NCBI GenBank assembly: GCA_035510735.1
Contig: DATKGN010000008.1
Span: 12,466 to 76,465, forward strand
Direction of reading: 5' to 3'
Source: Patescibacteria group bacterium
GTDB taxonomy: Bacteria; Patescibacteriota; Microgenomatia; UBA10105; UBA927
DNA: 64,000 nucleotides
Position numbers and translations under genes: made by a program. Shown here piece by piece: positions 4,526 to 38,262 of this stretch. Position 1 is the first letter of the stretch; every line of letters starts with the position of its first letter. Below the pieces are notes generated by a model that was not told the origin of the DNA, did no database searches, and saw nothing but the letters and a program-made list of their open reading frames with translations.

Positions 4526-6031
4526 TCATTCATCACCCTTTACCATCCAGGGTCTTTTATCATCAGGATCGTGTTTCATGAACGGGTCATCCCGAACCAA
4601 ACGAGAAAAACTAGGTCGTTGGGGTTTTTCGTGTCTCTCCGTTTCCTCAAGATACATCCTGGTATAATCTTCCGGACTCATACTCCCTGACCGGAGTGCC
4701 GCAATATCCGGCGTATTTAACAGTTGAACTGCCTTCTCTCTCGCGGCAGTAACAATACTTTTCCATAAATCCGGCTGATCTTCGATTCCCCATATGTTTT
4801 TCTTAGGTTGTTTTCGTCGTACCAATTCCGTAGCGATATCAAACGTAATTGAGAGTATCGCTATATCCCATCCCCGCGCTCCATATAGTTTTTCAATTGC
4901 TCCAAACTTTGCGAGCTCTTCCCACTTTCTTCGCGCATCGTCTTTCCATGCAAAAACATTCTTATCAACAATTTCTTCAGAAATATCTTTTATCGTTAAG
5001 GCATCAACCGTAAGGATAGATGGATCCATGCCAAGCGCTTTAATATATGGTCCATAGCTTTTCATCTCCTCTTTATGGTCTATCCCATCCTGACCTGCAG
5101 CTTCTCTCGTATTAGCCATCTCATCAAGCGTCCCGTTCATACAATCGGCAAACCAGTCTACGGTGAAAAGAATCGGTGGAAGACCTTTATACACAATGGT
5201 GTTATCGTTTTCATCTTCATGAAACAGATAATTTGCAAGTGAAAACCCGTATTCGTTCAGTTTCGCATTCACGGCTGGCGCAACAGAAAGAACGATATTG
5301 TCATAATACGGTTTATCGGGAACGTGCGCCTGCTCGGTGATAAATTCTACTGCAGCCTGATAATAATCGACATCCCGACGGTTAAGTTTCACCCACACTT
5401 CGTTCTGTGCCGGATTCTGTACCCAATAATTCGCCATCAATTGGGGGATATATTCACGGAGATACTGATCGCGGTTTTCATCAATCACAAAATTGAAAAT
5501 CATATTGTAGCCTCCGACGTCGCTCTCTTGGAGCCGGTTGCCTACACCCGCGGCAATAGCGTCATCAAGCAGCTGCTGCTTTTTCGGAGGAAGGATATCT
5601 AGCGCGCTAACATAATACGCTGACGCCGAAAGCGGCTCGTTAAAATGCTCTACAACCTCAAAAGATGTTCGTTCAAGGATGTACCATTCCCAGACTGAAA
5701 ACTGTTCAAGTTGCTCCTTTTTCCCTAAGTCCGTAAGTACGCTATATAACTCAATATCAATATCATTGCTCTTGCCATCCGGATCAAATGGTGTTGCTTT
5801 TTCAGCAACCACTTGGTTTATCAACTCATTAATTTTTTTTCTATGGAGGTCGCTATCAACCGTCAAAAGCTCCGCCGTTTCTACTGAAGTTGCAATAATC
5901 AATTCATGTTGGGCAAACAACAGCTCTTCAAAGCGGACGCCCGATTCCTTAAGCGCGTTTGAAAGATACGGGCTAAATTCTTTTACCGGTTGAAATGTTG
6001 GCCGCTCGCCGCCTGATTCAATTTGTGGCAT
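4526..6031 (-). CDS. hypothetical protein
   Basis: 501-aa ORF, acidic, no recognisable catalytic motifs. Confidence 0.45.
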   Translation of the reverse strand: MPQIESGGERPTFQPVKEFSPYLSNALKESGVRFEELLFAQHELIIATSVETAELLTVDSDLHRKKINELINQVVAEKATPFDPDGKSNDIDIELYSVLTDLGKKEQLEQFSVWEWYILERTSFEVVEHFNEPLSASAYYVSALDILPPKKQQLLDDAIAAGVGNRLQESDVGGYNMIFNFVIDENRDQYLREYIPQLMANYWVQNPAQNEVWVKLNRRDVDYYQAAVEFITEQAHVPDKPYYDNIVLSVAPAVNAKLNEYGFSLANYLFHEDENDNTIVYKGLPPILFTVDWFADCMNGTLDEMANTREAAGQDGIDHKEEMKSYGPYIKALGMDPSILTVDALTIKDISEEIVDKNVFAWKDDARRKWEELAKFGAIEKLYGARGWDIAILSITFDIATELVRRKQPKKNIWGIEDQPDLWKSIVTAAREKAVQLLNTPDIAALRSGSMSPEDYTRMYLEETERHEKPQRPSFSRLVRDDPFMKHDPDDKRPWMVKGDE

Positions 6032-6099: not shown

Positions 6100-8526
6100 T
6101 TACATCCGTTCTAATGTATTAATTCCCAATAAATACAATCCGTTTTTGAGGATTTGGGCGGTGGCAGTAGTGAGGGCGAGACGATGCAACATGCGACCTG
6201 TGACAAGCGACATGTTTTTTTCTTGCGTGTCACTTGTTGCTTGTTGCTTGTCTCCCAATATACTGTGTTTTGCATAAAACAGATTAAATGCCTGGGCAAG
6301 TTGAAAAAGATACGTACAAAGTGCGTTCGGCGCATACCGGTTGGCGCTATCCGCAACGACGTCCGGAAATTGCATAATATACCGGGCAATGGCGCGTTCC
6401 TCTTCATTAAAATTCAAAGCTCCAAATTCCAAATCCAAAATAAATTCAAATTCTCCAAATTCAATTGTTTTAAACGTTTGAGATTTTATGCTTTGAATTT
6501 TAGATTTATTTTGAATTTTGAGTTTTGGATTTTGTGCTTCCGCTGCCTTACGAAGTACACTTCGACAGCGGGCATACGTGTATTGCAAATACGGTCCTGA
6601 ATCGCCGTTAATGTTGATGGATTCTTTTAAGTCAAATGCGATCTCTGACGGAGTCGAGACCTTCAAAAACGCATATTTTATTGCCCCAATTGCTATGGTT
6701 TCGGCTTGCGCATCTGATGTATTTTTATCTATTTCTTTACTTTTTGAATTATTTTGTAATAGTACTTCTTTGATTTCTTTCTTCACTTCATCAATGAGCC
6801 ACTCGCCCAACACCACGTTACCCAACCGGCTGCTCATTTTTCCGTGTTTCAATTTCACCCAACCGTACGCAAGATGATATGGCACACCGGGTTTTACAAA
6901 ACCCAATAATTCCTCGACCTTAAACGTCACTTTGAAAAAGCTTGCCTGTTCAGGACCGACACAATGAATGAGTCTTTGGAGTTCTCCGAACTCAGTCGCT
7001 TCCATCGGCGCAAGCGCGAGCTCTTTAGCTTCGTAGGTCGGTAATCCGAGACTGTTTACAAAGACCCGCGTATCAATTCCGTACTCTTTACCCCGAAACA
7101 CGATCGCGCCTTCACTTTCTTCCAGTATTTTCTTTTTTACGGCATCCTTCGCAATATCCACGCCGGTTAGACATTCGCTTTCAAAATAGAACCGGTCATA
7201 ATGCGAATACACCCGTTTGTAAATCGTATCGAAATAATCCAGGCTCCACTGGCGCGTTTCTTTCCACAATGTATAGACCGTATCAACAATGCTTTTGTCT
7301 CCCTGGACAAACGAAAGATAATCCGTGGAAGGCTTTTTAAGTCCTCGTTCAACAGCAAACCGTTCAGCTGATGCATAGACGAAATAGTTAAAATCTTTAA
7401 TCCGCTTTTTAACTTTTTCTCCGTCAGCTGACGGATCTTCAAACGCTTTACTACCGGCGGCGTAGGCTTTCCCTAAAAACTCTACGCGGTTTTTTATTCC
7501 TCTCACCGATGTTACCTCTGTTTTAAATGGTGAAACGTTTAAGAGGGCATACAGTGCCTTTGCGATATGCATGCCGACATCGCCTTGATAGTTCGCTCTG
7601 ATAACGCGGTTCCCCTGTGATTCCAATAACCGGACAATCGATTCGCCCGTTGTAATGTTACGCAAATGGCCGATATGAAAGGCTTTATGCGTATTGGGGT
7701 GGGCAAATTCAACCATGATGGTTTGTTGCCCTTGGGACGCTGAGGTCGGCGTGCTTTTTGCTGCGTATCCGTCAACGCTTAGTCTGCTGCGGGTGACGCG
7801 GGTAGGAGGGCCTCCACCGGCCGGGGTCCCCTTTGTGGGTGGCGGTGGAGGAAAACCCGCGGCAGGATCCGCAGAGAGATCGTGCGCTACGACGGTACTC
7901 GAAAAAGTACGCCTCCCCGCGTCATCCAAAACGTTTGCCGACCTCAGTAGTGGTGACGATACACCGACCTCAGCATCGTCAGTGTTTTTATTTTTCCCGA
8001 ATGAGGCTGATTTTCCTACTTTCTCCGCTTTTCCCGAAGAATCGGCATTTGTGCGGAGATTCTCACCTGACTTTATAACTGTTTTTGCACCAATATTTGA
8101 CCCGATTGTCCCATCAATATGGGAAATATTCTCACTTAGCACTTTTCGTTCATCATCTCCTGTTACAGGCTGTGCATATTCAGCATTCTCTCTGAAACCA
8201 TAGTGCTCTTTTTTTTCTAGCACCGCTGACAGCTCACTGCCAAGGACTGCTTCGGACATATAGAAGTTGATGAAGCCAGGACCTGCTATCTCGACCCTAT
8301 CAAGCCACGACAGTGCTGATTTCTTTTGATCCTGATTGATTTGGTTAACAATATTTTCTGCAATTTTCCTGGGCGGAGCCTTGAGATGCTTTGAAAGCAA
8401 CATTGCAACGTTTGTCGTGTAATCTCCGAACTTTGAATTCTCAGGAACATCAACGGCAATTACCGCATCGGTAATTCCCATGTTTTTTACGATTCCCGCA
8501 AGATAATTTTTGATCTCATTTTTCAT
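6100..8526 (-). CDS. argS: arginyl-tRNA synthetase with two large in-frame insertions
   Basis: N-terminal Arg-tRNA-synthetase N domain, class I HIGH motif (AHPNTHKAFHIGHLRN), C-terminal ...LGINTLERM ending in Met as in ArgRS; 808 aa versus typical ~550-600. Confidence 0.85.
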   Translation of the reverse strand: MKNEIKNYLAGIVKNMGITDAVIAVDVPENSKFGDYTTNVAMLLSKHLKAPPRKIAENIVNQINQDQKKSALSWLDRVEIAGPGFINFYMSEAVLGSELSAVLEKKEHYGFRENAEYAQPVTGDDERKVLSENISHIDGTIGSNIGAKTVIKSGENLRTNADSSGKAEKVGKSASFGKNKNTDDAEVGVSSPLLRSANVLDDAGRRTFSSTVVAHDLSADPAAGFPPPPPTKGTPAGGGPPTRVTRSRLSVDGYAAKSTPTSASQGQQTIMVEFAHPNTHKAFHIGHLRNITTGESIVRLLESQGNRVIRANYQGDVGMHIAKALYALLNVSPFKTEVTSVRGIKNRVEFLGKAYAAGSKAFEDPSADGEKVKKRIKDFNYFVYASAERFAVERGLKKPSTDYLSFVQGDKSIVDTVYTLWKETRQWSLDYFDTIYKRVYSHYDRFYFESECLTGVDIAKDAVKKKILEESEGAIVFRGKEYGIDTRVFVNSLGLPTYEAKELALAPMEATEFGELQRLIHCVGPEQASFFKVTFKVEELLGFVKPGVPYHLAYGWVKLKHGKMSSRLGNVVLGEWLIDEVKKEIKEVLLQNNSKSKEIDKNTSDAQAETIAIGAIKYAFLKVSTPSEIAFDLKESININGDSGPYLQYTYARCRSVLRKAAEAQNPKLKIQNKSKIQSIKSQTFKTIEFGEFEFILDLEFGALNFNEEERAIARYIMQFPDVVADSANRYAPNALCTYLFQLAQAFNLFYAKHSILGDKQQATSDTQEKNMSLVTGRMLHRLALTTATAQILKNGLYLLGINTLERM
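6408..6535. repeat. in-frame low-complexity imperfect palindrome inside argS
   Basis: CCAAATTCCAAATCCAAAATAAATTCAAATTC ... GAATTTTAGATTTATTTTGAATTTTGAGTTTTGGATTTTG arms; encodes KLKIQNKSKIQSIKSQTFKTIEFGEFEFILDLEF. Confidence 0.55.
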
Positions 8527-8542
8527 AATTTACTCTAGCGTA

Positions 8543-9250
8543 TCACGAAAGGTCAACGCTCACCAAATTGTTGTTCATAACAACAGTCTGACAGTCGCCA
8601 TGCAACAATTGCTTAACGAGCATCCCCGCTTCTTCCAGTGCCCGGCTCAAAACCTGGTCAGCTACCTCAGGAACCTTTTCCATAACCATGATTGCGCGGG
8701 TTGTTGACTCTGTGATCTTCGTCCGCTCGGCTTCCCGCCAATTCCATCTACGACACACGAAACCAGCCTCGTCAGCATAGACAACTTCACCGATATAACA
8801 CGTTTCGTCGACGTCGCTGCCAAGCGCTCGCCCGCCTTCGGTGCCAGAAGCAAATCGGAGCCACAGATCGCCTTTCATCGCATCTAAATTTTCCGCTCCG
8901 ACAGGCACATGATACTTCAGGGAAATGTAATTATATAAATCGACAAGATTATTTATTTGGGGAAGCGGTTTAGCGCCTCCTCTTGCTCTTCTTAATAGTG
9001 ACTCAACCGAACTCCGGTAGTCATGCGGATCACTGCCGAAGGTTTTATAGATCCGGCGCCATGCAGCGATCTCCGGAAGTGTTCCTAATTCGACATTGGT
9101 AAGCAATTCTTTTTGATGAGTTTCTTCGTTTCTCAAAAGTTTGAGAATTTTCTCCGATGACCCGTTATTATCCATGTGATCAATAATCAAGATGCCGAGA
9201 GAAACTCCAGGAAACGTTTTTAAAATTTGGGGCTCAATAACAAATTTCAT
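8543..9250 (-). CDS. B3/4 (PheT-like) tRNA-binding domain protein
   Basis: MKFVIEPQI...FPG...GIL start and overall pattern typical of stand-alone B3/4 domain proteins. Confidence 0.55.
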   Translation of the reverse strand: MKFVIEPQILKTFPGVSLGILIIDHMDNNGSSEKILKLLRNEETHQKELLTNVELGTLPEIAAWRRIYKTFGSDPHDYRSSVESLLRRARGGAKPLPQINNLVDLYNYISLKYHVPVGAENLDAMKGDLWLRFASGTEGGRALGSDVDETCYIGEVVYADEAGFVCRRWNWREAERTKITESTTRAIMVMEKVPEVADQVLSRALEEAGMLVKQLLHGDCQTVVMNNNLVSVDLS

Positions 9251-10191
9251 ACGCTTTTTCCATGATAGCATCCCAAAAGCCACAACATGAGCGCCTTTTG
9301 GACATGCAGTCTGTTCTCCGCCTGGTGAAAAACGATGGACTGAGCGCCGTCAATAACATCGGCGGTAACCTCCTGCCCACGATACGCCGGTAAATCATGC
9401 ATAAATACCGCATCACGTTTCGCAAGCGACATCAACCAGCTATTTACCTGATACGGAAGGAATTTGCAAAGTCTCGTTGACTTGTCCGCTTCGTCCCCCA
9501 TGCTTACCCAGGTGTCGGTGTAGACAACATCCGCCCCACGCACCGCTTCCTGCGGATCATCGGTAAGAAATACGTTTCCGCCTGACTGGATAGAGATATT
9601 TTGCGCCATAAGAAGTATTTCGGATTTCACTTCATATCCTTTTGGGCTGGCAATACAGATATTCATCCCCCATTGCGCCGATGCGAGAACCAATGAATGA
9701 GCTATATTATTTTCACCATCGCCGATGAATGCGATCTTGAGTCCACCAAGCTTCTTTTTCACTTCAAGGATCGTAAATAGATCGGCAAGCGCCTGGCACG
9801 GATGCTCCCAATCGGATAAACCGTTAATAACCGGAACACGCGAGTGTTTAGCTAATTCATAAATCGTGGAATGGGAAAAAACGCGCGCCATCATAACGTC
9901 TCCCATAGAGGAGGCAACTTTCGCGACGTCGGAGACGGATTCGCGCGTGCCGAGGCCGATATCGTCAGGACCCAAATATACAGCGTGTCCGCCTAATTGC
10001 GTCATCCCCACTTCAAACGAAACCCTGGTACGGAGACTTGGCTTTTCAAAGAGCATGACCATGGTGTTGCCGGCAAGGGCTGTCTTGTAACTTTCCGAGT
10101 GTTTGAGCGTCGCAGCCATGGTAAAAATCCGCTTCATGGCGGCTGTATCCAAATCCGTAATTGATAAAAAATGTTTTAACTCCATAATCAT
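9247..10191 (-). CDS. argF: ornithine carbamoyltransferase
   Basis: SLRTRVSFE (STRTR) carbamoyl-phosphate motif, HPCQALAD (HPxQ), DLPAYRGQEV (HCLP-like, with Asp in place of Cys); arg-cluster context; start chosen at internal Met (ORF opens 10257). Confidence 0.75.
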   Translation of the reverse strand: MIMELKHFLSITDLDTAAMKRIFTMAATLKHSESYKTALAGNTMVMLFEKPSLRTRVSFEVGMTQLGGHAVYLGPDDIGLGTRESVSDVAKVASSMGDVMMARVFSHSTIYELAKHSRVPVINGLSDWEHPCQALADLFTILEVKKKLGGLKIAFIGDGENNIAHSLVLASAQWGMNICIASPKGYEVKSEILLMAQNISIQSGGNVFLTDDPQEAVRGADVVYTDTWVSMGDEADKSTRLCKFLPYQVNSWLMSLAKRDAVFMHDLPAYRGQEVTADVIDGAQSIVFHQAENRLHVQKALMLWLLGCYHGKSV

Positions 10192-10206
10192 TTGTGCCGG
10201 TTGGGA

Positions 10207-10229
10207 GGCCTGCCTGCGCAGGCAGGCTC
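10207..10229. promoter_or_regulatory. perfect GC-rich hairpin between argG and argF
   Basis: GCCTGCCTGCG/CGCAGGCAGGC palindrome. Confidence 0.4.
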
Positions 10230-10253
10230 TAGAAGGCCCCAAATCGGCAACCC

Positions 10254-11537
10254 TCAAACCCCAATCTGACCCGCCCGCTTCGCCGTATCTTCAGCGAGGC
10301 GAGCTAATTTCATCTGCAGGCTATAAATTTCTATAAATCCTGCCGATGCATTCACGTTAAAGTCATACCCCTCACTCTTGGTAAATGATGTATAGGCCAA
10401 AGCATTAGGCGACTCCATCGCGACAACATCAACTTTTCCTTTAAAAATTTTTATGGTCACGACACCCGCCACGTTTGCATTTACCTGATCATTAAACTGG
10501 TTTATCGCCATCATGACCGGGTCATACCAAAGCGCGTTGTAGCAGAGGTATCCCCATTTGACGTCAAGCTCAGCTTTGAGTTCGTTGAGCTTCTGCGTCG
10601 AAACGTATTTCTCCAGCGCCTTATGCGCTTCGATAATGACGGCGGCTCCCGGCAACTCGTAGACGCCGCTATTTTTAAGCCCGACCAGACGGTCCTCTAC
10701 CATGTGGACGACGCCGACACCGTGAGCACCCGCGATCACGTTAAGCTTAATAATGAGATCACTGAGCTTCATTGGTTTTCCGTTTAACCCTACAGGTAAA
10801 CCATTTTTGAATATCAGGGTAAGATATTCCGGTTTGTCTGGTGCATTCGTGGCAAGCGAATAGGTCGTCAAAAATTTCTCAATCGGAGAAATCACCGCAG
10901 GGTCCTCTATCTCCCCGCCTTCCCACGTCATGCCCCACATGTTATCGTCAACACTATAGGGAAAATCTAATGTCGCTGGAACCGGTATACCGTGCTTTAT
11001 GGCAAATTTAATTTCATCATTCCTGTCCATATCCCATTCACGGACGGGTGCGATGATTTTAATTTTGGGATTCAATGCAAGCATATAACCCTCCAACCGC
11101 ACCTGATCGTTCCCCTTCCCTGTGCAGCCGTGCGCAATGGCATCAATGTTGTGCTTCTTTGCCATTTCAACAGCCTTTTTGGCTATGATTGCCCTCCCCA
11201 TCGGAGTCGAGAGATAATAATTACCCTGATAACTTGCGTTCGCCTTGATACCTTTTGCGAGAAATTCGTCGGCAAATTCATCCTTCACATCAAGCGTTAT
11301 CGCCTTGACTGCCCCGAGCTTCAGGGCTTTTTTCTTGATGGCAACAAGGTCATCCTGCTGCTGTCCGATATCAAGGGTAAGAGCAATAATATGAGCTTTA
11401 TACTGATCCTTAATCCATTTGAGCATCACGCTGGTATCAAGCCCGCCGGAGTACAGGAGTAAAACCTTCTTCACGTCTCCGGCTTTGGCTTCATATGACG
11501 ATGTCTTAACATACTTTGTTTTCGTTTTCATATTCAT
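10254..11537 (-). CDS. argG: argininosuccinate synthase
   Basis: LLLYSGGLDTSV PP-loop, full-length similarity pattern to ArgG. Confidence 0.85.
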   Translation of the reverse strand: MNMKTKTKYVKTSSYEAKAGDVKKVLLLYSGGLDTSVMLKWIKDQYKAHIIALTLDIGQQQDDLVAIKKKALKLGAVKAITLDVKDEFADEFLAKGIKANASYQGNYYLSTPMGRAIIAKKAVEMAKKHNIDAIAHGCTGKGNDQVRLEGYMLALNPKIKIIAPVREWDMDRNDEIKFAIKHGIPVPATLDFPYSVDDNMWGMTWEGGEIEDPAVISPIEKFLTTYSLATNAPDKPEYLTLIFKNGLPVGLNGKPMKLSDLIIKLNVIAGAHGVGVVHMVEDRLVGLKNSGVYELPGAAVIIEAHKALEKYVSTQKLNELKAELDVKWGYLCYNALWYDPVMMAINQFNDQVNANVAGVVTIKIFKGKVDVVAMESPNALAYTSFTKSEGYDFNVNASAGFIEIYSLQMKLARLAEDTAKRAGQIGV

Positions 11538-11555
11538 TCACTTCCTCTCATAAAC

Positions 11556-13073
11556 TTACTTCCCTCCCGAAATCAGTTTTGAAATTGCATGAATTGTCGC
11601 TTCATGCGCCAAATGTAATGCGTGCTGCATTTTTGTTGACCACGCAGTAAGATCTTTCAAATCTTTCGAAAGTATCCGGACGGCCTTCTCTCCAGCTTGA
11701 ATACCTGGACCTCCGAAAACTTTGGTAAGTCCGATAATCCGCTCCGGATCCTGCCACGCTGCAACATCTGAGGCAGTAATGGCAATCGTAATATTTTCTT
11801 CCGTAAGCGCTTGTTGGAGCGCCTCAAAGGTCACAATTTCATGACCTTTGGAATATTTCACGCCTTTTTCAATAATAACTTTTGCCTTTCTCATCGGGAG
11901 CCCGAAAACCCCGGTGATTTGCTCCATAAGGCTCGTCGCACCGATAAATCCTTTTTTACTCCAGGCGAGCATAACCTCTTTATTCACCGTAAGGCTTTCA
12001 ATGACGCCCTTCATAACAACCGGCGCCAGGATACATTCCGAAATAACATCCATAACCATATACTTCGTCCACTGCGAATCACGGTTGTAGCCGATAAAAT
12101 TGCTCTTCCCAATGCCGAGTAAACCCGTGAGGGTACCCTGCGCATACGCCGCTTTCCCTTTTATAACTTCCAGAGGATCCGGATTTTTTTTCTGCGGCAT
12201 TACCGAGCTCCCTGTCGAAAATTGGTCAGCAACCGTCGTCATCCCGAACTCGGGCGTCGACAGAAGGATCAATGTCTGGGCCATAAGCGACAAATGATTC
12301 ATGAGGATAACAATGGCGTAGGCCAGGTCAGCCTCCGGTTCCCAACGGTTAGTGACGGGGTCAAGTGAATTGACTTGTGCTCCATCAAAACCCAGAAGTT
12401 TGGCACTGTACGCACGGTCGAGCGGAAATAGCGTGCCGTAGGACGTACTACTTCCAAGCGGACTTGAATTATGAAGGTCAAACCAAAGGGAAAACCGTTT
12501 GGCGTCGCGTACCATCATGGCGGCAAAAGCGGTAAGCATATGCCCATATGTCGTAACCATCGCATGCTGATGATGCGTAAATCCCGGCATAACGGTCCCT
12601 TCATGCTTTTTCGCTTGGCTAAGAAGCGCAATGGCTAATTGAGTTGTTCCATCAATAAAGGCTAATACCTGATCCCTGAGATACATCCGCACGTCGGTGA
12701 CGACCTGATCATTGCGCGAGCGCGCCGTATGGAGCTTACCCGCGGCCTCAATCCCATATTTTTTCGTGAGCCATGATTCAATGTTCGTGTGCACATCCTC
12801 TTTCTTCGGATCAAGGATAAATTTACCGGCCGATGCAAGTTTTTCTATTTCAGACAAACCTTTGAGAATCTTTTTGGCATCAGTAACGGGTATAATCCCC
12901 TGTTTGGCAAGCATCAGGCAATGTGCCTCGTTAAGCCATATGTCGTAGGGAATGAGTTTGGTGTCAGAGGCAGGAATCGGCGCCACATCACGACCTGCGG
13001 CAAATGATATGACCGCTTCGCTTGGCGTCTGGCTAAAAGCCGCGCCCCATAATTGTTTTGTTTGTTGTTTCAT
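11556..13073 (-). CDS. argH: argininosuccinate lyase
   Basis: SRNDQV and GSSVMPQKKNPD fumarate-lyase signatures; start set at MKQQTKQLWG preceded by AAGGAGG RBS (ORF opens at 13268). Confidence 0.85.
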   Translation of the reverse strand: MKQQTKQLWGAAFSQTPSEAVISFAAGRDVAPIPASDTKLIPYDIWLNEAHCLMLAKQGIIPVTDAKKILKGLSEIEKLASAGKFILDPKKEDVHTNIESWLTKKYGIEAAGKLHTARSRNDQVVTDVRMYLRDQVLAFIDGTTQLAIALLSQAKKHEGTVMPGFTHHQHAMVTTYGHMLTAFAAMMVRDAKRFSLWFDLHNSSPLGSSTSYGTLFPLDRAYSAKLLGFDGAQVNSLDPVTNRWEPEADLAYAIVILMNHLSLMAQTLILLSTPEFGMTTVADQFSTGSSVMPQKKNPDPLEVIKGKAAYAQGTLTGLLGIGKSNFIGYNRDSQWTKYMVMDVISECILAPVVMKGVIESLTVNKEVMLAWSKKGFIGATSLMEQITGVFGLPMRKAKVIIEKGVKYSKGHEIVTFEALQQALTEENITIAITASDVAAWQDPERIIGLTKVFGGPGIQAGEKAVRILSKDLKDLTAWSTKMQHALHLAHEATIHAISKLISGGK

Positions 13074-13777
13074 ATATCCTCCTTTTAAAATATCTTTCAA
13101 CGTTATACCACTGTTACGCTCTCTAATACTATCGACAAAACATGGTGCCCTACCTCCTCCACATCCTCCTGCGCTCAAATTCGCCTCGAGGATTACATCC
13201 ACGCCACAATCCCAGTAGAACGCTCGCCGTTCCCGTGCTCGGAGTTTATCCCGCTTGGCGGGATGCACGCGTCACGGTGTCGCGTCTACGGGATTTGTGG
13301 TTTCTAGATTCGCGAATATGAATTCGCTCATCAAGTAACCACAAAAAAATCCCCTTGAGCCTCGATCCCTAAAGAGGGATGGAGGCGCAAAGGGACGTTT
13401 AGGTGTAATTTTCGTTTTCGTTCTTCTATGAACTATTCACTACTCACTATGTACTAATTCGTGGTGCCACCCTGATTTTCAATCAATGTCCTTGGGGGAC
13501 AATAAAAACCTCTGTTTATGCCCCTCGACATTGCTCGGGACTTGCCTTGACAGAAGGTTATGATTGACTCGTTTATGTTTCTACTTTCCCTCGATTTCTC
13601 TCGGGATTTCTTCGAAACTGGCTCCGGAGCTCGACCCCAGCTGCTCGCGAGCGGCTGGGTTCTCCTTCAACGCCAAAACTGCTATTAAATTGTTAGGTAA
13701 TTAATTTACAACTAAATGGACGCCGTGTCAAGAGGCAATTTTTCGTGTATCAATACAGTTGATGGTGATGGGCTGGG

Positions 13778-16078: not shown

Positions 16079-16162
16079 TGTCATCGCGAGACCGTTCCGA
16101 CGGCGCGGCGATCCCATCATGTTTGAGATTGCTTCTCCGTCAGCCGACGGATCGCAATGACA
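16079..16162. repeat. palindromic MITE/REP-like element (copy 1 of 3) filling the gap between the two comEC ORFs
   Basis: TGTCATCGCGAGACCGTTC...GATCGCAATGACA terminal inverted repeats; related copies at 53612-53703 and 54775-54866. Confidence 0.65.
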
Positions 16163-17119
16163 TTAGAAACTAATACTCGCAAACGGAATTTTAGCCGTCA
16201 GATCAATGATCCAAAGCACATACGTAAGTGGCAGCCACACAAACCAAGCGACGAGCTGTGCGAGCGGCATAAAGAACATGCCCATTATTATGACAGTAAA
16301 GCCAAGTGCCATAATCGGTGCCATGAGCCAGCCGATGAGAATATTTGTGAGAGGAGAGATAAGGGAAATCCTGTGAAGCTGAAACAAAATAATCGGGATG
16401 GTAAACGCCTGAGCGGCGAGTGTAACCCGGAGATCATCGGCGATAAGTAACCAAAGCCATCGTATAAGGCGTTGAGGATACGTATTTTGAGGAGCACTGA
16501 AGGTGCGCCCGATATCAACTTTAACATTTCCATCTAAGGATATTGGCGCAGCTTCACTGAGTGAAGCGGTGGTGTGGCGATTGGTAGCTAGATTAATCCG
16601 CTTCGCGCCTCCGAAAAATACTGCATCCGAAACGCCGCTAGTAGAGCCAAAAATAATAATCCCCAGCGTAGCCATAACGGAAAGCTGGAACGAAAGATCG
16701 CCGATCCATGGGGGATTTAGCAATAGCATAATAATGACTGCTAATATCCAACTCAATAACGGCCATTTTTGCCTCCCAAAAGCTACTGATAGAAGTGATA
16801 TTCCGCCCATAATACCGGCCCGTATAACGCTTGGAGAGGGTCCGACAAAGAAAATAAACCCTATAATTATAACTATGGTCAATAAGTTTGCTATAGGACG
16901 TCGAAATACCTTATAGAGTACAAGACCTACCAGTGTTACGAGAATCGAGATATTCATTCCCGACAATGCGATGATGTGAAGCGTACCGGTTTCAATAAGA
17001 GAATTCTTAAGAGACGGATCCAATGTCGCCTTGGTACCGAATATAATTCCGTTAAGAAGTCCGGCCTGCGGTTCATGCAATAGACTGTTAATAAGGCCCG
17101 TTAATGTTTCAAGTGACAT
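16163..17119 (-). CDS. comEC: ComEC competence-domain (membrane channel) protein
   Basis: Polytopic; ALSGMNISIL and GFQLSVMATLGII motifs typical of the ComEC competence domain. Confidence 0.7.
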   Translation of the reverse strand: MSLETLTGLINSLLHEPQAGLLNGIIFGTKATLDPSLKNSLIETGTLHIIALSGMNISILVTLVGLVLYKVFRRPIANLLTIVIIIGFIFFVGPSPSVIRAGIMGGISLLSVAFGRQKWPLLSWILAVIIMLLLNPPWIGDLSFQLSVMATLGIIIFGSTSGVSDAVFFGGAKRINLATNRHTTASLSEAAPISLDGNVKVDIGRTFSAPQNTYPQRLIRWLWLLIADDLRVTLAAQAFTIPIILFQLHRISLISPLTNILIGWLMAPIMALGFTVIIMGMFFMPLAQLVAWFVWLPLTYVLWIIDLTAKIPFASISF

Positions 17120-17160
17120 AGAATTGATAAGCCCGCCGGAAATTAAGCCGTCCTGGACGA

Positions 17161-17892
17161 TTACAGTGACAGGCTGTTTTTCAATTTTTCAAGTAACGAC
17201 GGGCCAATTGCCTTTTTCGCAACCAAGTCATCCAAACTGCCATACGGCCGGTTATCAATAATTTTCTGTGCAGTGATCGGACCGACGCCCGGAAGCGAAT
17301 CTAATTCATCTTTAGAGGCCATATTAACCGAAATAAGAGCGGTATTTTGCGACTGGCCATTCGAACTATTACTGAGATTGTACGACGTCTCGTTGAGACG
17401 TTCGTACGAATCTCCATTGTGCGATGTCTCATCCACCGTCGGAATATATATTTTCATCCCGTCACTAACTTTCATGGCGCGGTTTATATTTTTTGCAACA
17501 TAATCCGTGTCTGCATTTGACAACATCCCGCCGGCAGCAATAATCGCATCCTCTACCCTCGCGTCCACAGGCACCATAGTTACACCGGGATGCACGACCG
17601 CACCCTCAATATCAAGGGTAATTAGCTTCAAATTAGCAGAACCACTAGCTTGATTGCTAGTATTTTGCGAGCCTCCGTCATGCGTAAACTCAATCGGTTG
17701 ATCATTTTGAGTTGATTTCACTAAAAGCACAAGCGAGATACCGATACAGACAAGGCTAACTACGCCCAATAGTATCGGCAGTTTATAAAGTCGCCAAATT
17801 CCCGCAAAAATGTTTTCACTCTCATCTTGGGCAGGATCCATTAGCAGCATTAGAACATAATGGCGAAATAAAGTCTGTGAGCTGGAAGACAA
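17161..17892 (-). CDS. comEA: competence protein ComEA (helix-hairpin-helix DNA binding)
   Basis: C-terminal INMASKDELDSLPGVGPITAQKIIDNRPYGSLDDL HhH motif; N-terminal TM anchor. Confidence 0.75.
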   Translation of the reverse strand: MSSSSQTLFRHYVLMLLMDPAQDESENIFAGIWRLYKLPILLGVVSLVCIGISLVLLVKSTQNDQPIEFTHDGGSQNTSNQASGSANLKLITLDIEGAVVHPGVTMVPVDARVEDAIIAAGGMLSNADTDYVAKNINRAMKVSDGMKIYIPTVDETSHNGDSYERLNETSYNLSNSSNGQSQNTALISVNMASKDELDSLPGVGPITAQKIIDNRPYGSLDDLVAKKAIGPSLLEKLKNSLSL

Positions 17893-17919: not shown

Positions 17920-20652
17920 CTACACGACGACCAAATTCATGAGTTTTCCCGATATAAATATTGTTTTGACAACCCGTTTTCCTTCAATATGGCGTTTCAC
18001 CCGCTCAGAAGCATGTACAAGAGCTTCTACGTGGGCCTTATCCTGCCCGTCCTTTTGAGATAATGAGATTGTATCTCTAACTTTCCCATTCACCTGAACA
18101 ACAAGTGTAATACGTTCTTCTTTTACCTTGGTCAGATCGAATGCCGGCCATAACTGAACGTGTACCGAGTCTTTTGCGCTGTATTCTGATTCTTTTTTAC
18201 CACTTAGAAGAAACCATAATTCCTCCGCCACGTGCGGTGCAAACGGCGCAAGGAGTAATACGAGTTGCTTGAATTCATTTTTGCCTATTTGACCTTCCTC
18301 GTCAGCGACTAAATTCGTAAATTCCATCATAGAGGCTATTGCGGTATTATACCGTCGTTTTTCAAGATCATCCCCAACCTTTTGGATCAGTTTTTGTAAA
18401 GCAGACTTTACCTTGTCAGAGCAATCTGAATTATTTGTAGCAATCGCCTCCCATAACCGCCAAATCCGCCCAACCCACCGGCTCATACCCTCCATAGCTG
18501 TATCCCGAAAATCGCCGCCCTGGTCAAACGGTCCCATGAACATAAGATACAACCGTAGGCTATCGGCGCCGTAGGACGCGATATATTCATCAGGATTCAC
18601 TACATTTCCTTTACTTTTGCTCATTTTTGCTCCGTCTTTGATAACCAGTCCGTGCGCATAGAAACGGGTAAAAGGTTCTTCAAAATCAACGAGTCCCCAA
18701 TCTTTCAGTGCCATCGTAACGAAGCGGCTGTACATGAGATGGAGGACGCTGTGTTCTGCTCCGCCGGTGTACATATCAACAGGAAGCCATCGCCGTGTGA
18801 CCTTCAGATCCCACGGAAGCTGCGAAGATAGAGGATTGAAGATAGAAGATACATTTTCTCTATCTACCTTCGATCTTCTATTTTCTATCTTCTTGTTGAC
18901 ACTCGGGTATCTCAAAAAATACCATGAGCTATCTAAAAATGTATCTGACACATCTGTTTCCCGTACGGCTTTCGCTTTACATCCCGGACAGGTTGTCTCA
19001 TAAAATTCCTTATGTTTTGCAAGCGGAGCCACACCATCATTACCCGGTTTATAATCATCAATACGCGGTAGAACAACCGGAAGCTTATCATCGGGTACTG
19101 GGTACCAACCAGCCATTTCTGAAGCTGCGGCGAGGCGTGTCTTTTCAAGCACCGTCACGCTCTTTTCAGATCGAGCTGACTGATTGTTTGACTTTGAGCT
19201 TGACGAATGCGCAGTAAAAGATACGCCGAGCGAAGCAGCTTCGTCGGTTGTAAACCACGATTTTCCATTCTTTGCGCATTCTTTACAAAAAATCATGGGA
19301 ATCGGCGGGCCCCAATACCGTTGTCGGGAAATTAACCAATCCCGCAGATGATACGTCACAATACGCTTCCCCCACCCATTTTTCTCCAAATAATCCATCA
19401 TTGCATCTATTGCCTTATGAATATTGAGACCATCCAAAAAGCCTGAATTCATCATCACGCCTTCTTCTTCTTGAACTTGTGCGGACTTTGTTATTGATGA
19501 CATATCTCCGTCAACGCCTTTAACCACTCGAATAATGGGCAGGTGGAACGCGGTCGCAAATTCAAAATCACGAAGATCGTGCCCGGGGACTCCCACGACA
19601 GCACCTGTCCCAAACCCCATAACCACGAAATCTGAGATATATAACGGCATTTTCTGACCGGTTAACTGATTTATGCAGTAAAGACCGGTTTCGGCACCTG
19701 TTTTTTTTCTCCCCTCGGCAATTCGATTAGATTCTGATTTATTATAGGCGGCATTAATGTATTTCGTTATTGCAGCGCGCTTATTTTTTTCTATCACTGA
19801 AAGGAGCTGATTGACAAACGGATGCTCGGGAGCCATTACGACAAATGTTGCACCGAAATTGGTATCAGGTCGTGTGGTAAAACAGATAACTTCCCCAACA
19901 CTCTTCCCTTGTTCATCAACAACGGGGTATGTAATATTTATCCCCTCTTTTTTCCCGATCCAATTCTTTTGGGCTATCCGAACTTTCTCTGACCAGTCGA
20001 GGTTTACTCCGCCTTGGGCGGAGCCTGCGACGTTTTCTAATAATTTTCCCGCATATGCGGTAATTCTAAAAAACCATTGTTCTAACGATCTCTTTTCAAC
20101 GATATTACCGCATCTTTCACACTTACCATCGATGACCTGCTCATCTGCTAATACAGTCTTACAACTGGGGCACCAATTGACCTCCGCCTTGCTCCGATAA
20201 GCTAAACCATGCTTAAACATTTGCACGAATAACCACTGTGTCCATCTATAATAATCTATATCATACGTTTCCACTGTTCTGCTCCAATCAAACATTGCAC
20301 CGATCCTATGAAGCTGACCATAATAATTCTTCTCAGTTATCTTCGCGTGATCCATGGGGTGACGACCTATCTTCAATGCATAATTTTCACTATGAATACC
20401 AAATCCATCCAATCCAATCGGCTCAAACACGTCATATCCTTGCATACGCTTAAACCGCCCGTAAACATCTGAACCGGTAAAGGCATACATATTTCCGACA
20501 TGTAAACCCTCTGCCGACGGATATGGAAACATCATGAGGTTGTAGTATGGCTTCTTTGCCGCTTCTATATTAGTACTATTCAATAGCTTCCGGTCCCACC
20601 AAGTTTGCCACTTCGATTCCAGCTGATTAAAATTGTATGTAACTTTCTTCAT
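17920..20652 (-). CDS. leuS: leucyl-tRNA synthetase
   Basis: Class I HIGH-region (PYPSAEGLHVGN), KMSKSKGN motif, length ~910 aa. Confidence 0.85.
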   Translation of the reverse strand: MKKVTYNFNQLESKWQTWWDRKLLNSTNIEAAKKPYYNLMMFPYPSAEGLHVGNMYAFTGSDVYGRFKRMQGYDVFEPIGLDGFGIHSENYALKIGRHPMDHAKITEKNYYGQLHRIGAMFDWSRTVETYDIDYYRWTQWLFVQMFKHGLAYRSKAEVNWCPSCKTVLADEQVIDGKCERCGNIVEKRSLEQWFFRITAYAGKLLENVAGSAQGGVNLDWSEKVRIAQKNWIGKKEGINITYPVVDEQGKSVGEVICFTTRPDTNFGATFVVMAPEHPFVNQLLSVIEKNKRAAITKYINAAYNKSESNRIAEGRKKTGAETGLYCINQLTGQKMPLYISDFVVMGFGTGAVVGVPGHDLRDFEFATAFHLPIIRVVKGVDGDMSSITKSAQVQEEEGVMMNSGFLDGLNIHKAIDAMMDYLEKNGWGKRIVTYHLRDWLISRQRYWGPPIPMIFCKECAKNGKSWFTTDEAASLGVSFTAHSSSSKSNNQSARSEKSVTVLEKTRLAAASEMAGWYPVPDDKLPVVLPRIDDYKPGNDGVAPLAKHKEFYETTCPGCKAKAVRETDVSDTFLDSSWYFLRYPSVNKKIENRRSKVDRENVSSIFNPLSSQLPWDLKVTRRWLPVDMYTGGAEHSVLHLMYSRFVTMALKDWGLVDFEEPFTRFYAHGLVIKDGAKMSKSKGNVVNPDEYIASYGADSLRLYLMFMGPFDQGGDFRDTAMEGMSRWVGRIWRLWEAIATNNSDCSDKVKSALQKLIQKVGDDLEKRRYNTAIASMMEFTNLVADEEGQIGKNEFKQLVLLLAPFAPHVAEELWFLLSGKKESEYSAKDSVHVQLWPAFDLTKVKEERITLVVQVNGKVRDTISLSQKDGQDKAHVEALVHASERVKRHIEGKRVVKTIFISGKLMNLVVV

Positions 20653-21503: not shown

Positions 21504-21521
21504 TTGACGGCCTTATTATAT

Positions 21522-30422
<8,901 letters not shown>

Positions 30423-30550: not shown

Positions 30551-31069
30551 TTAATCAGCGCACAATGTATAGTCGGAAGTGGTCAAAGCCGGGTTTGCTG
30601 ATTTACAGGAATCTGCACATTTTGCCTGAGATGCCGTGATATCGGTGTCTGATGCATTATCCAACGTTGCCCAGAGGCAAAAATCATCGCGTGCAACACC
30701 CACCGGCTGATAATGCCATACATAAGAGGCTGCCTGAGGCAAAAGTTTCATATACACATTTGTTCCTGCCGCAAACTCACCGGAATTACAGCTTGCAATT
30801 GGTGGTGTTGCATTACCGCATCCATCCAAATCGTTAGTCGTTGCATCCGGCGGGTAGATATTAAAATCGTTATAATACAGTCTGAGTGCTGTTTTGAGCT
30901 CCTGTAGTTCGGATTTCTTTTTAACGTCTTTCGCCCGCTGCCTGGCTCCCAAATAATTTGTGACCGCAAATGCTATGAGTACGGCGATAATGGCAATCAC
31001 AACAAGAAGTTCAATAAGCGTAAAGCCGCGTTCAAATCTACTGGTTATCCTATTTCGAATATTTTTCAT
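30551..31069 (-). CDS. prepilin-type (type IV pilin / pseudopilin-like) protein
   Basis: N-terminal GFTLIELLVVIAIIAVL class III signal/methylation motif followed by ELQELK...YYND helix. Confidence 0.75.
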   Translation of the reverse strand: MKNIRNRITSRFERGFTLIELLVVIAIIAVLIAFAVTNYLGARQRAKDVKKKSELQELKTALRLYYNDFNIYPPDATTNDLDGCGNATPPIASCNSGEFAAGTNVYMKLLPQAASYVWHYQPVGVARDDFCLWATLDNASDTDITASQAKCADSCKSANPALTTSDYTLCAD

Positions 31070-31092
31070 TTATTGTGGTCCCACTTGTTACT

Positions 31093-31608
31093 TTACAGGG
31101 GTGTGTTACTGCTTGCAATACCATACATACACTCTGCCCCGCCGCCGCAATTGGTGTTCGCGTAGCCCGTGATTTTGACCCCTTTATCCGTATCCATTGT
31201 ATTTTCGATGGTCGAATAGATTTTATAATAGCTCCCATCCAGAGAATCATAATAATAGGCTTCGCCTGGCTGTGGATCCGTTGGCAGCGCGAGCATATAG
31301 ATAGTCTCAGGAGATGCCAAGAGATCACTCCATTTTTTCCCCCATGTACAGTCACTGATGCTTCCGGATCCTAAAATACACCCTTTAATCTGGCCTGCAT
31401 CACCGAGCGGATATTTTCCCTTATCGTTATAATATGTTTCCAACGCCTGGGCAACCTGTCCTAAATCGCTTTTACGCCGGCTGTCTCTGGATTTTTTCAC
31501 CGACGAAATGAAGCTTCCCACACCCGCAACGATCAGCATTCCAAGAAGAGCAATGACAATTAATAACTCTATTAACGTAAATCCGTTTCGTCGTGTATGT
31601 CTTTTCAT
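31093..31608 (-). CDS. prepilin-type (type IV pilin-like) protein
   Basis: GFTLIELLIVIALLGML motif; start set at MKRHTRRNGFTLIELL preceded by GGGAGG RBS. Confidence 0.75.
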   Translation of the reverse strand: MKRHTRRNGFTLIELLIVIALLGMLIVAGVGSFISSVKKSRDSRRKSDLGQVAQALETYYNDKGKYPLGDAGQIKGCILGSGSISDCTWGKKWSDLLASPETIYMLALPTDPQPGEAYYYDSLDGSYYKIYSTIENTMDTDKGVKITGYANTNCGGGAECMYGIASSNTPL

Positions 31609-31628
31609 TGTAACAAGTCCTCCCCGTG

Positions 31629-32309
31629 CTAATGCAGGCACCGGTTCGCCGGATTTCCACATTGATTCACACCATTATATATACATCCGAAGCCGTAACG
31701 GAATGGGCAACCTGCAGCATCGGGGTCTGCATAATTATTGCAATCTCCGGCTTTCGTACACTCCCATTGACCACCGGACGGAGGTGTAGGCGTCGGAACA
31801 TTGGTGGGCGTCGGCGTCGGCGTGCCTGTGGGGGCCCCCGGAATAAAATTCGGGGCAACGACATCTGACCCCATGGCAACGCAATAATTATATCCTACTC
31901 CCCACCCGCACCCCTGTACGGGATCACACCCGATCCGGGTAATATCCGGATCGCTCAAATCCTCCAATTTTGCACAAACATGATAGCCGTCGCAAGCCGT
32001 TGGCGTTCCCGCAACATATAGATAGGGTCCGTTATTGCCGGGATCGCAGGGTACCCTCGGAATATATGGGGCAAGACCGGGTCCTCCGCAGCTCGTGAGA
32101 GGAGATGAAGCGTAATAACAGGCTTTATCATTGTAATATTCTTCAAACGCCTTCTGAATCTTCTCAAGATCGGTTTTTCTCTGCGTATCACGGCCTTTGG
32201 CGAATTGATTCCGGAGATTCATAAGAAGGATAAGGAGCAAGAGGACAAGAAGAGCTATCACGATAAGAAGTTCCATGAGGGTAAATCCGCGATCATTTCG
32301 CTTGCTCAT
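31629..32309 (-). CDS. prepilin-type (type IV pilin-like) protein with Cys-rich, TPTPTP-linker C-terminal domain
   Basis: GFTLMELLIVIALLVLL motif; C-terminal region with 12+ Cys and TGTPTPTPTNVPTPTPP linker. Confidence 0.7.
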   Translation of the reverse strand: MSKRNDRGFTLMELLIVIALLVLLLLILLMNLRNQFAKGRDTQRKTDLEKIQKAFEEYYNDKACYYASSPLTSCGGPGLAPYIPRVPCDPGNNGPYLYVAGTPTACDGYHVCAKLEDLSDPDITRIGCDPVQGCGWGVGYNYCVAMGSDVVAPNFIPGAPTGTPTPTPTNVPTPTPPSGGQWECTKAGDCNNYADPDAAGCPFRYGFGCIYNGVNQCGNPANRCLH

Positions 32310-32376
32310 CGGGGTCAGGAATCTCATATATCAGGTATAATCAGTATGGCAAGACACCAAACAAAAAGCAACCAAT

Positions 32377-37974: not shown

Positions 37975-38262
37975 GTCAAGAAGTAAGCGTGTATTCGCGC
38001 TTTGCTCACCCGCGCGATTTCCGGCGCTCTCGTCAACGCTTAGCTATTTCGTAATGCAAGTTGGACTAATTACGAAGGAGCCAACAACATTGAGTCCGGA
38101 TTCACTTTGCGAGTGAGGGTATCTTGATAGTATAAAAGCCATATTTCATGAGAGAAACTGAAGCCCGGATCTCAATGTTCGTTGGCGACAAAAGCGTAAT
38201 CAGATGTTGTAGTCCCGCGCGGGTGACGGTGCTGCAAATTGTGCGTATTCGCCGCGCGAATA
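37975..38262. repeat. ~290 bp nested imperfect inverted-repeat element (MITE-like or structured RNA) in intergenic gap
   Basis: Outer arms GTATTCGCGC...TCACCCGCGCG vs CGCGCGGGTGAC...GCGCGAATAC; inner arms ATTACG...CCAACAACATTGAGTCCGG vs CCGGATCTCAATGTTCGTTGG...CGTAAT. Confidence 0.5.

Follow-up and report, generated by a model that had tools for sequence, protein, structure and literature searches.

Rickettsia palindromic elements (RPEs) are the closest described counterparts of the DNA considered here; R. felis carries 728 of them, 85 within open reading frames (ORFs) (PMC1166351). We analysed a 64-kb window, meaning the whole stretch of 64,000 nucleotides taken from contig DATKGN010000008.1 of the Patescibacteria group assembly GCA_035510735.1, in which argS, the gene for arginyl-tRNA synthetase (ArgRS), contains three in-frame inserts that fold as hairpins. 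In our judgement these extra ArgRS segments are probably RPE-like, selfish or neutral hairpin-forming repeat DNA lodged in permissive loops, and not domains of the enzyme. Like RPEs, the elements of this lineage are imperfect palindromes of ~100-150 nt that occur in many dispersed copies, invade both coding and non-coding DNA and remain in frame with the host protein preserved; here, housekeeping enzymes, tRNA synthetases among them, are the hosts. According to Ogata, Claverie and colleagues, the peptides encoded by RPEs reportedly lie at the protein surface. Unlike RPEs, which belong to Alphaproteobacteria, the present elements come from Patescibacteria, known as metagenome-assembled genomes (MAGs) of free-living or episymbiotic organisms, with no sequence relationship established between the two, and they comprise several co-existing families that nest within each other, some being inverted arrays of 7-nt units. 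We know of no description of RPEs in which families are rapidly swapped at the same loops, as is seen here in close relatives. The elements would be RPE-like in kind only, and no assignment to the Rickettsia families RPE-1 to RPE-8 is claimed.

A second resemblance is to the cyanobacterial short tandemly repeated repetitive (STRR) sequences and small dispersed repeats (SDRs) and to the TAACTGA heptamer repeats of Beggiatoaceae, Cyanobacteria and Bacteroidetes, which share with the present elements tandem 7-nt units of differing sequence, often adjacent to one another. The heptamer repeats of those groups are mostly intergenic and of unknown origin, and translated TAACTGA repeats yield peptides of the LSVISYQ type (PMC4679880). 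Among the ArgRS homologues analysed here, the peptide SYQLSAISYQL arises from a one-base variant of the TAACTGA repeat. Unlike the cyanobacterial-type repeats, those described here often form inverted pairs that make hairpins of 70-130 nt, and they are often found in frame inside essential genes, even though units of 7 nt do not by themselves keep the frame.

Repetitive extragenic palindromic (REP) and REPIN sequences are short hairpin palindromes between genes and behave like non-autonomous mobile DNA (PMC3116915, PMC3733652), and one family of the window, family E, looks like such an element. REPs, however, typically measure 20-40 nt and are extragenic by definition, whereas the elements here span 70-250 nt and many lie in coding sequence. 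The enterobacterial RU-1/2/3 and ERIC-like MITEs (miniature inverted-repeat transposable elements) likewise make up intergenic families, of ~100-170 nt, that are sometimes found inside ORFs, where they give a peptide (PMC2759123, PMC3184786); those cases are mostly hypothetical or fused ORFs, whereas here insertions recur, with fast turnover, at fixed loops of essential enzymes. In the mitochondria of Nematomorpha, long inverted repeats are also translated within functional genes (PMC6649704), but there the repeats are perfect and both arms encode conserved parts of the protein, while here they are extra, imperfect and unconserved, and loop out.

Open-access full texts yielded no description of in-frame palindromic inserts in the candidate phyla radiation (CPR), though earlier work may exist, and the sequence strings of family E returned from the same literature only unrelated primers and CRISPR mentions. 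The points of difference from the described elements are the lineage, the co-existence of nested families, the occurrence of inverted heptamer arrays as coding inserts and the rapid replacement of elements at fixed loops of essential enzymes.

An arginyl-tRNA synthetase with three inserts

The host gene and its inserts are located as follows.

6100-8526, minus strand: argS, an 808-aa ORF encoding a complete class I arginyl-tRNA synthetase that carries three inserts
7723-8193, minus strand: the complete site 1 insert (aa 112-268), lying between the N-terminal domain and the first of the strands that precede the HIGH motif; predicted to be disordered
6408-6535, minus strand: site 2 insert, an AT-rich and imperfectly palindromic sequence in which 7-nt units form two inverted arrays
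6186-6252, minus strand: site 3 insert, a short palindrome that includes a 7-nt tract, (TTGCTTG)n, and encodes GDKQQATSDTQEKNMSLVTGRML

At 808 aa, the protein stands against 574-600 aa for insert-free homologues and 578 aa for E. coli ArgRS, in agreement with an earlier reading made from the sequence alone (the sequence-only reading), which had found the enzyme ~200 aa longer than usual. About 25% of this essential enzyme is extra sequence from hairpin-forming repeat DNA. The inserts are three and not two, the site 3 palindrome having been overlooked in that reading, and all three fold as hairpins.

Membership in class I ArgRS is supported by an Arg_tRNA_synt_N domain (aa 4-89), a Rossmann-fold catalytic domain (tRNA-synt_1d) with a HIGH motif at aa 284-287, invariant in 66 sequences, and a DALR anticodon-binding domain (DALR_1), all three Pfam matches lying above their cut-offs. 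The DALR_1 match is spread over aa 647-808 although the profile has 117 positions. An identical protein is recorded as the arginine--tRNA ligase of a Patescibacteria-group MAG, and the nearest named relatives belong to Gottesmanbacteria and other Microgenomates.

In an AlphaFold2 model built from a 66-sequence alignment, the core is predicted with confidence, 493 residues having a predicted local distance difference test (pLDDT) of at least 90, and it superposes on the crystal structures 2ZUE, 6AO8, 4OBY and 1F7U with target-normalised template modelling (TM) scores of 0.77-0.86. In this prediction the core keeps its fold, and the inserts appear as low-confidence loops between confidently predicted elements (pLDDT below 50 over aa 121-264 of site 1, 55-73 at site 2 and ~61 at site 3). 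Examples of the predicted insert peptides are TFSSTVVAHDLSADPAAGFPPPPPTK and IQSIK/TIEFGEFEFILDLEFGALNFNEEER.

Short-read assemblers are notoriously prone to difficulty with palindromes and low-complexity repeats, and a chimeric contig, a collapsed repeat, a mis-joined read or a faulty gene call might create inserts of this kind. Three independent assemblies, made from different sequencing runs or samples, nevertheless agree at every one of the 2427 nt of argS, and for that reason the inserts are not ascribed to assembly. The reading frame is unbroken across all three of them, and comparable inserts occur in dozens of independently assembled relatives; an artefact of assembly or gene calling is next to inconceivable. 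Inteins, introns and translational bypass were also dropped as explanations, the inserts all being in frame, free of stops and freely variable in sequence, as was an intervening sequence excised by an RNase III-type enzyme, as known from CPR rRNA, since cleavage would destroy the mRNA.

A mobile composite element at site 1

In the ArgRS alignment, site 1 holds ~160 residues here as against 8 in E. coli ArgRS. The sequence-only reading had described it as a GC-rich disordered insertion; the insert exists and is predicted to be disordered, but it is wider than was supposed and GC-rich (66-68%) only at 7750-7900, and its GC-rich part is itself a palindrome and not only a disordered segment. It consists of two layers.

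7969-8193, minus strand: older layer (aa 112-186), a Lys/Ser-rich linker ending ...SSGKAEKVGKSASFGKNK (SASFGKNK)
7739-7920, minus strand: younger layer, a composite mobile palindrome within the remaining ~82 aa (7723-7968), encoding AGRRTFSSTVVAHDLSADPAAGFPPPPPTKGTPAGGGPPTRVTRSRLSVDGYAAKSTPTSA
7783-7875, minus strand: GC-rich palindromic core (66-68% GC), nested in the family A element of the younger layer

The older layer, of ~75 aa, is common, with variation, to many related ArgRS, in which the motifs ..NVDKKGK..AGK..SASFGN.KTIMVEFA recur. Because many orthologues share aa 112-186, this part is a clade-wide linker and not a private insertion. The sequence-only reading had allowed that segments shared with orthologues of distant lineages would be lineage-specific domains and not insertions; sharing among orthologues was found for aa 112-186 but not for the palindromes, which are unconserved as peptides. 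Relative to the closest relative, L001, the ratio of nonsynonymous to synonymous substitution rates (dN/dS) of this shared part is 0.53, as compared with 0.05 for the core and 0.05-0.14 for the domains, indicating relaxed constraint.

The inserts might alternatively be lineage-specific functional modules of ArgRS, such as the tRNA-binding or protein-interaction appendages of eukaryotic synthetases, a proposal that draws on the Lys-rich character of the older layer, on its motifs KNVDKKGK, AGK and SASFGN common to many relatives, and on a dN/dS that stays below 1. It sits poorly with the palindromic parts, which are unconserved even between proteins whose cores are 89% identical, are predicted to be disordered or of low confidence, and have peptide sequences dictated by the symmetry of the DNA; moreover, the elements recur in the unrelated enzymes encoded by leuS, comEC, an rmlD-like gene and a methyltransferase gene. 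We regard a functional module as very unlikely.

The younger layer carries the strongest evidence that a dispersed mobile element is at work. Family A supplies its outer arms (GGCGTACTTTTTCGAG...CAAAAAGCACGCC), and the stretch 7735-7985 folds as a large composite hairpin (z = -5.0). Within it, the core forms an inverted repeat (7783-7803/7855-7875), and the segment 7775-7885 folds with a z of -3.3. The window sequence 7739-7920 matches, over ~185 nt, with ~88% identity and in the same reading frame, an insert in the comEC gene of L085, a metagenome contig with a syntenic leuS-comEA-comEC arrangement, whose host gene matches the Pfam family Competence and whose insert reads NAGRRTFSSTVTAWNLSAGPVAGFPPAPPTKGTPAAGGPPTRATR...AAKSTPTSA, framed as in argS. 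The LeuRS proteins of the two genomes are 64% identical. Because the composite element is ~88% identical in unrelated genes of genomes as diverged as this, it must have moved recently, and by sequence comparison it is demonstrably the best case of dispersal in the window. The proposal of the sequence-only reading that argS contains an in-frame palindromic insertion of the RPE type was right in kind, but the best proof of mobility belongs to this GC-rich insert and not to the AT-rich palindrome of site 2, to which it had been applied.

The core and its surrounding arms can be told apart in other copies. Family A copies in leuS, in the rmlD-like gene and in the argS of L001 do not contain the GC-rich core, which is present in L085, and in the comEC gene of a further locus, L092, family A arms surround a different GC-rich core at the same position. 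An exhaustive phmmer search with the peptide of the GC-rich element found a 55%-identical version in an unrelated protein fragment, P0121, the sole credible additional host; three more matches were proline-rich and probably compositional. The protein set searched had been clustered at 50% identity, which hides most carriers of the element. A scan of metagenomes with the family A arm pattern returned 16 loci, of which L085 and L092 are real; the other 14 are chance matches in high-GC genomes, where the pattern encodes a common peptide, TVLE(N/K)(V/M)R.

ComEC itself has an insertion hot spot after ...LSFQLS..LGII.FG (window 16163-17119; L085 3501-4130; L092 889-1923). The comEC gene of the window has one insert at that spot, including a GRTFSAP stretch reminiscent of family A, while L085 carries the GC-rich composite there and L092 the variant with another core.

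Antisense to site 1 runs a plus-strand ORF of 169 aa (7694-8203), whose peptide ..AEVGVLFAAYPS..TVLEKVRLPAS corresponds to the reading that serves as sense in the comEC gene of L092. It exists only because the palindrome is also free of stops in the mirror frame, and it probably gives rise to spurious 'hypothetical protein' annotations.

Families A, B and E elsewhere in the window

Further copies of three families lie within other genes and between genes.

19134-19227, minus strand: family A palindrome in leuS, the in-frame 'Ser-rich insert' GVSFTAHSSSSKSNNQSARSEKSVTVLEKTRLAAAS (z -2.1)
43830-43928, minus strand: family A palindrome in the rmlD-like gene (43577-44557), in frame, encoding SAHEFTVHPSALRHSSYTSGLQILRSDGARNCAPY
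18823-18895, minus strand: family B palindrome in leuS, in-frame (GAAGATA)n / (TATCTTC)n, encoding KKIENRRSKVDRENVSSIFNPLSS (z -5.3)
38855-38932, minus strand: family B palindrome in an S-adenosylmethionine (SAM)-methyltransferase gene (38266-39168), in frame, encoding KMEDRKWKVDKTGSLSSIVHHPFS (z -5.4)
16080-16161, intergenic: family E palindrome, GTCATTGCGAG..GCAATC..GATTGC..CTCGCAATGAC
53613-53701, intergenic: family E palindrome of the GTCATTGCGAG...CTCGCAATGAC type
54776-54864, intergenic: family E palindrome of the GTCATTGCGAG...CTCGCAATGAC type

The Ser-rich insert that had been noticed in leuS is the family A copy, which is 76% identical over 104 nt to the site 1 insert in the argS of L001, and leuS has a second insert besides, belonging to family B. 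At the family A site, the LeuRS of L085 has a shorter version. The copy in the rmlD-like gene uses the same frame as the leuS copy, and its two arms differ from those of the leuS copy in a complementary way. Separately, a long nested palindrome (37986-38262) makes up the intergenic region of 326 nt that lies downstream of the methyltransferase gene, and it has a family A-like arm at 38223-38245.

The two family B copies are 75% identical over 73 nt and encode similar peptides. In the methyltransferase, the insert sits just before the SAM-binding motif, the Pfam match to Methyltransf_23 beginning at aa 104; in L085, the family B site of LeuRS is occupied by another element, VIPASEPES..WIPGQARDD. 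Family E, intergenic three times in the window, is found in frame in the argS of L001, at the very site 2 position where the window has its AT-rich palindrome. REPs are 20-40-nt extragenic elements with a GTAG or CGTC end (PMC3733652), whereas family E starts with GTCATTGCGAG, and the CGTC present in family A arms (..CCGTCA) is internal to them and does not form a defined terminus.

Taken by their properties, the elements are imperfect, hairpin-forming palindromes of ~70-250 nt with folding z between -2.1 and -5.4. Dispersed copies were found for family A with its GC-rich core (argS, leuS, the rmlD-like gene, comEC of L085 and L092, and P0121), as well as for family B (leuS and the methyltransferase gene) and family E (between genes at three places, and in the L001 argS). 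Coding copies are in frame and free of stops, and in the ArgRS model those of argS loop out of an intact fold, presumably at the surface. Of the three sense frames, only the one in use is stop-free in site 2, the site 1 composite and both leuS elements; two are stop-free in site 3 and in the methyltransferase and rmlD-like copies. The sequences show that the GC-rich composite element is mobile, and they strongly suggest the same of families A, B and E.

Palindromes at sites 2 and 3

The coding strand of site 2 consists of (CAAAATY)n followed by the complement of (CAAAATY)n and reads in frame as ...NPKLKIQNKSKIQSIKSQTFKTIEFGEFEFILDLEFGALNF, the translation already given in the sequence-only reading, whose description of 6408-6535 as an AT-rich imperfect palindrome translated in frame stands. 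Its GC content is 25-28%, as compared with ~44% across argS, and its arms are 75% (6415-6450/6499-6534) and 81% (6408-6433/6477-6502) complementary. It has the top ungapped inverted-repeat score of the window (17), and inverted repeats scoring at least 14 occur at four sites in the window and at none in the shuffled window. The folding z is a modest -2.4, 5 of 200 shuffles folding equally well; the palindrome is real but imperfect. Through it, helices one and two of the DALR anticodon-binding domain are separated by ~35 additional aa (approximately aa 667-701), the alignment showing 46 residues here and 16 in E. coli ArgRS.

Site 3 (aa ~759-777) lies between the last two long helices of the same domain. 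Its arms (6186-6208/6225-6247) are 78% complementary and it folds with a z of -3.5, which none of 200 shuffles equalled.

As to further copies of the site 2 palindrome, for which the sequence-only reading had suggested a search, lookalikes were recovered, but no near-identical second copy. The nearest lie at the same site in the orthologues L002, L004, L009, L022 and L029 and in terminator-like intergenic hairpins of relatives, which resemble site 2 in both architecture and repeat unit; one of these, in L050, has nearly the same unit and follows directly after the argS stop codon (z -5.2). An analysis of covariation in the site 2 hairpin across orthologues was abandoned because low-complexity 7-nt arrays cannot be aligned unambiguously.

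These observations bear on whether site 2, and with it site 3, might have grown locally, through slippage of a 7-nt motif and hairpin-templated strand switching, the inserts of orthologues being inherited or convergent. Local growth would account for the lack of a second site 2 copy in the window and for lineages that differ in the 7-nt unit at one loop, such as (GCAAATG)4, (CAAATCC)4 and (AAAGCTC)4(TTGGTCA)4. Relatives free of an insert already have AEIQN|GAL-type sequence and small stems at site 2, and heptanucleotide repeats are reported to be commoner in prokaryotes than any other long simple repeat, polymerase slippage having been given as their cause (PMC4679880, in a summary of earlier work). 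Set against this, L001, the closest relative, has the unrelated and clearly dispersed family E at the exact position of site 2; intergenic hairpins of the same architecture with a near-identical unit exist in relatives; the site 1 element of the same gene is demonstrably mobile; and slippage in steps of 7 nt would usually break the frame of an essential gene. We consider local growth possible, if clearly less probable than the general reading of selfish or neutral repeat DNA in permissive loops. In either case, the most likely origin of site 2 is that it belongs to the same class as the intergenic terminator-like heptamer hairpins, whether inserted or grown in place.

Heptanucleotide tracts

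Tandem 7-nt units (at least three in a row) are in excess over other periods, as with STRRs. The window has eight such tracts (6223-6255, 6414-6441, 6505-6536, 18823-18854, 18863-18895, 38858-38889, 38900-38929 and 1330-1377), and its shuffles have none. In 1.2 Mb of related loci, period 7 is dominant, with 165 tracts as compared with 2-65 for periods 5, 6 and 8-11, and 37% of the 7-nt tracts fall in the 8% of sequence outside long ORFs. Fifty tracts inside argS, from 80 genomes, cluster at six loops (Q residues ~49, ~67, 110-264, ~335, 664-701 and 758-777). Some of the site 2 inserts of relatives, among them the arrays of (GCAAATG)4 type named above, are plain heptamer arrays.

At 1330-1377, the reading frame of a hypothetical protein (568-1422) runs through a (CAACAAC)n tract in its hydrophobic N-terminal segment (VGCQLLVVGCWLLVAS), and this heptamer array is without an inverted partner.

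In L010, site 2 of argS (~4900-4980 of the locus) consists of (AATTACG)2, a 29-nt hairpin CCAGCCAAAGGC..GCTTTTGGTGG and (AATTACG)3, and has the look of a heptamer array into which a small palindrome was inserted, or of a palindrome around which an array was duplicated. Elhai et al. (2008, Genome Res 18:1484) are said to have described SDRs as very small hairpin elements that nest in each other and in heptamer arrays, an arrangement that the L010 site resembles.

Turnover at fixed loops across the clade

In an alignment of the 120 best ArgRS homologues (574-965 aa), length differences concentrate in three blocks, which are sites 1, 2 and 3. At least 10 extra aa are present at site 1 in 59 of these 120 closest homologues, at site 2 in 44 and at site 3, likewise a block of low-occupancy columns, in 40. 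The multiple alignment that the sequence-only reading had called for places the inserts in low-occupancy blocks, and ~75 aa of site 1 prove to be common to many orthologues. The insert peptides of the homologues are recognisable as translations of palindromes or 7-nt repeats, for instance VIARSE..AIP..IASLSLAMT, VIPA.EPES..WIPGQARDD and DSRLRGND, or, besides the SYQLSAISYQL already mentioned, ANGKWQMANG and EIRNSK..FEFVSDFDIR, and the same classes (VIA..LAMT, IPGQARDD, DSRLRGND) appear at different sites in different proteins. Among 79 related loci, many site 2 inserts are long hairpins, with z down to -7.9.

Occupants change quickly. L001, 89% identical to the window ArgRS over 527 core columns, has another element at site 2 and another centre at site 1. 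AT-rich palindromes of the window's type are found at site 2 in L002 and L004 (73%) and in L009, L022 and L029 (53-61%), and are absent from relatives intermediate between L001 and the distant orthologues.

Many of the GTDB records with the closest ArgRS relatives (L001-L080) are titled 'uncultured Gammaproteobacteria', 'Pseudomonadales' or 'archaeon' despite Microgenomates-type ArgRS and gene neighbourhoods, and look mislabelled.

Such a distribution also speaks to the idea of selection for the hairpins themselves, as RNA or DNA, through slowing of the ribosome at domain boundaries, mRNA stability or processing, or internal attenuation, with the peptide as a by-product. Hairpins at site 2 are kept in orthologues that have diverged in sequence (z of -5.2 in L029, -4.3 in L009, -4.1 in L002 and -3.3 in L004), the arms of family A differ between copies in a matching way, and the inserts lie at domain junctions, all as selection of this kind would have it. 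Many orthologues, however, lack inserts there altogether, and the sequences that do fill the sites are unrelated to one another and of unrelated length; the elements are also found in both orientations and in intergenic DNA, and complementary arms are expected, without selection, in young copies of any palindromic repeat. Nor does any Rfam family match, whether the whole window is taken at the gathering threshold or argS at an E-value threshold, apart from one sub-threshold chance match. We consider selection on the RNA or DNA unlikely.

Other features of the window

Directly upstream of argS lie a B3_4-domain gene, argF (encoding ornithine transcarbamylase), argG and argH (window 8543-13268), an arginine-biosynthesis cluster whose order relative to argS is repeated in independent contigs. 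The lineage is usually described as lacking much amino-acid biosynthesis, which makes the cluster beside argS notable. An additional N-terminal insert in argH was considered and dropped, as the 570-aa ORF begins at an upstream GTG and the likely start is Met 66. Upstream of argH, two adjoining strong intergenic hairpins (13294-13345 and 13350-13395; scores 14 and 13.5) are among the best inverted repeats of the window.

The plus-strand ORF 21504-30422 encodes 2972 aa and has internal tandem repeats, ~63-65% identical to each other in a self-BLAST comparison, over ~22.4-24.5 kb. It is followed by three consecutive genes (30551-32327) with type IV pilin N-terminal methylation motifs and one weak match, below the Pfam cutoff, to the ComP DNA-uptake receptor. 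Together with comEA/comEC (16163-17892), the genes with pilin motifs look like a natural-competence or pilus gene set.

Discussion

We propose the following course of events. Several repeat families are present in this genome and its relatives, both between and within genes, with intergenic DNA of this Microgenomates/Gottesmanbacteria-like lineage being rich in them, and their elements would move between unrelated genes and genomes, as the comparisons demonstrate for the GC-rich composite and suggest for the others. A copy that lands in an essential gene would survive only if its length is a multiple of three, if it offers a stop-free frame and if it falls in a surface loop, conditions with which the frames and the predicted loops described above agree, so that the same few ArgRS loops, three main ones and six in all, would be hit repeatedly and independently across the clade. 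Loop occupants, as seen between close relatives, are replaced quickly and can nest within each other. The encoded peptide would be a passenger, disordered or loosely structured and under relaxed constraint, with the ribosome presumably reading through the hairpin in the mRNA. At site 2, a terminator-like heptamer hairpin may either have been inserted or have grown in place through slippage and hairpin-templated copying. Selection at the RNA level, a functional appendage and an artefact are each less likely than selfish or neutral repeat DNA.

Several points weigh against this proposal. Pfam searches of 40 window ORFs identified no mobility machinery, that is, no transposase, no REP-associated tyrosine transposase (RAYT) or IS200/IS605-type gene, and no parent insertion sequence (IS) from which a MITE-like element could have arisen. 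The elements are palindromic throughout, and direct repeats flanking the argS and L085 copies, such as a target-site duplication would leave, were unrecognisable because the complementarity of the arms continues into the flanks. A search with a site 2 arm, exact and with 3 mismatches, matched only the query itself and so found no second near-identical copy in the window, and the matches of site 2 elsewhere are low-complexity and ~70% identical, near what composition alone would give for AT-rich heptamer arrays. Copy numbers are minimum counts, taken from a 64-kb window of a 184-kb contig. That the inserts are translated is deduced from the frame being unbroken. A dN/dS of ~0.5 is relaxed but not neutral, and the conserved Lys-rich motifs of site 1 could have gained a function.

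A more far-reaching idea is that an undescribed, transposase-independent process continually creates, inverts, nests and replaces heptamer hairpins and palindromic elements at pre-existing small hairpins in Microgenomates-type Patescibacteria. On this view ArgRS, LeuRS and ComEC would have hot spots that are targeted and not just tolerated, and much of the new peptide sequence in genomes that are otherwise streamlined would come from the process; we give this a small but appreciable chance of being right.

Patescibacteria are regarded as extremely streamlined. If what is described here is general, it would explain many of the odd low-complexity 'inserts' and length differences in annotated CPR proteins, and it would be a reason to mask such segments when phylogenies are built or structures predicted. 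The elements would also serve as a natural guide to where tRNA synthetases tolerate insertions, and as a tractable case for how very small palindromic and 7-nt elements move, as is still being asked of their cyanobacterial and Rickettsia analogues.

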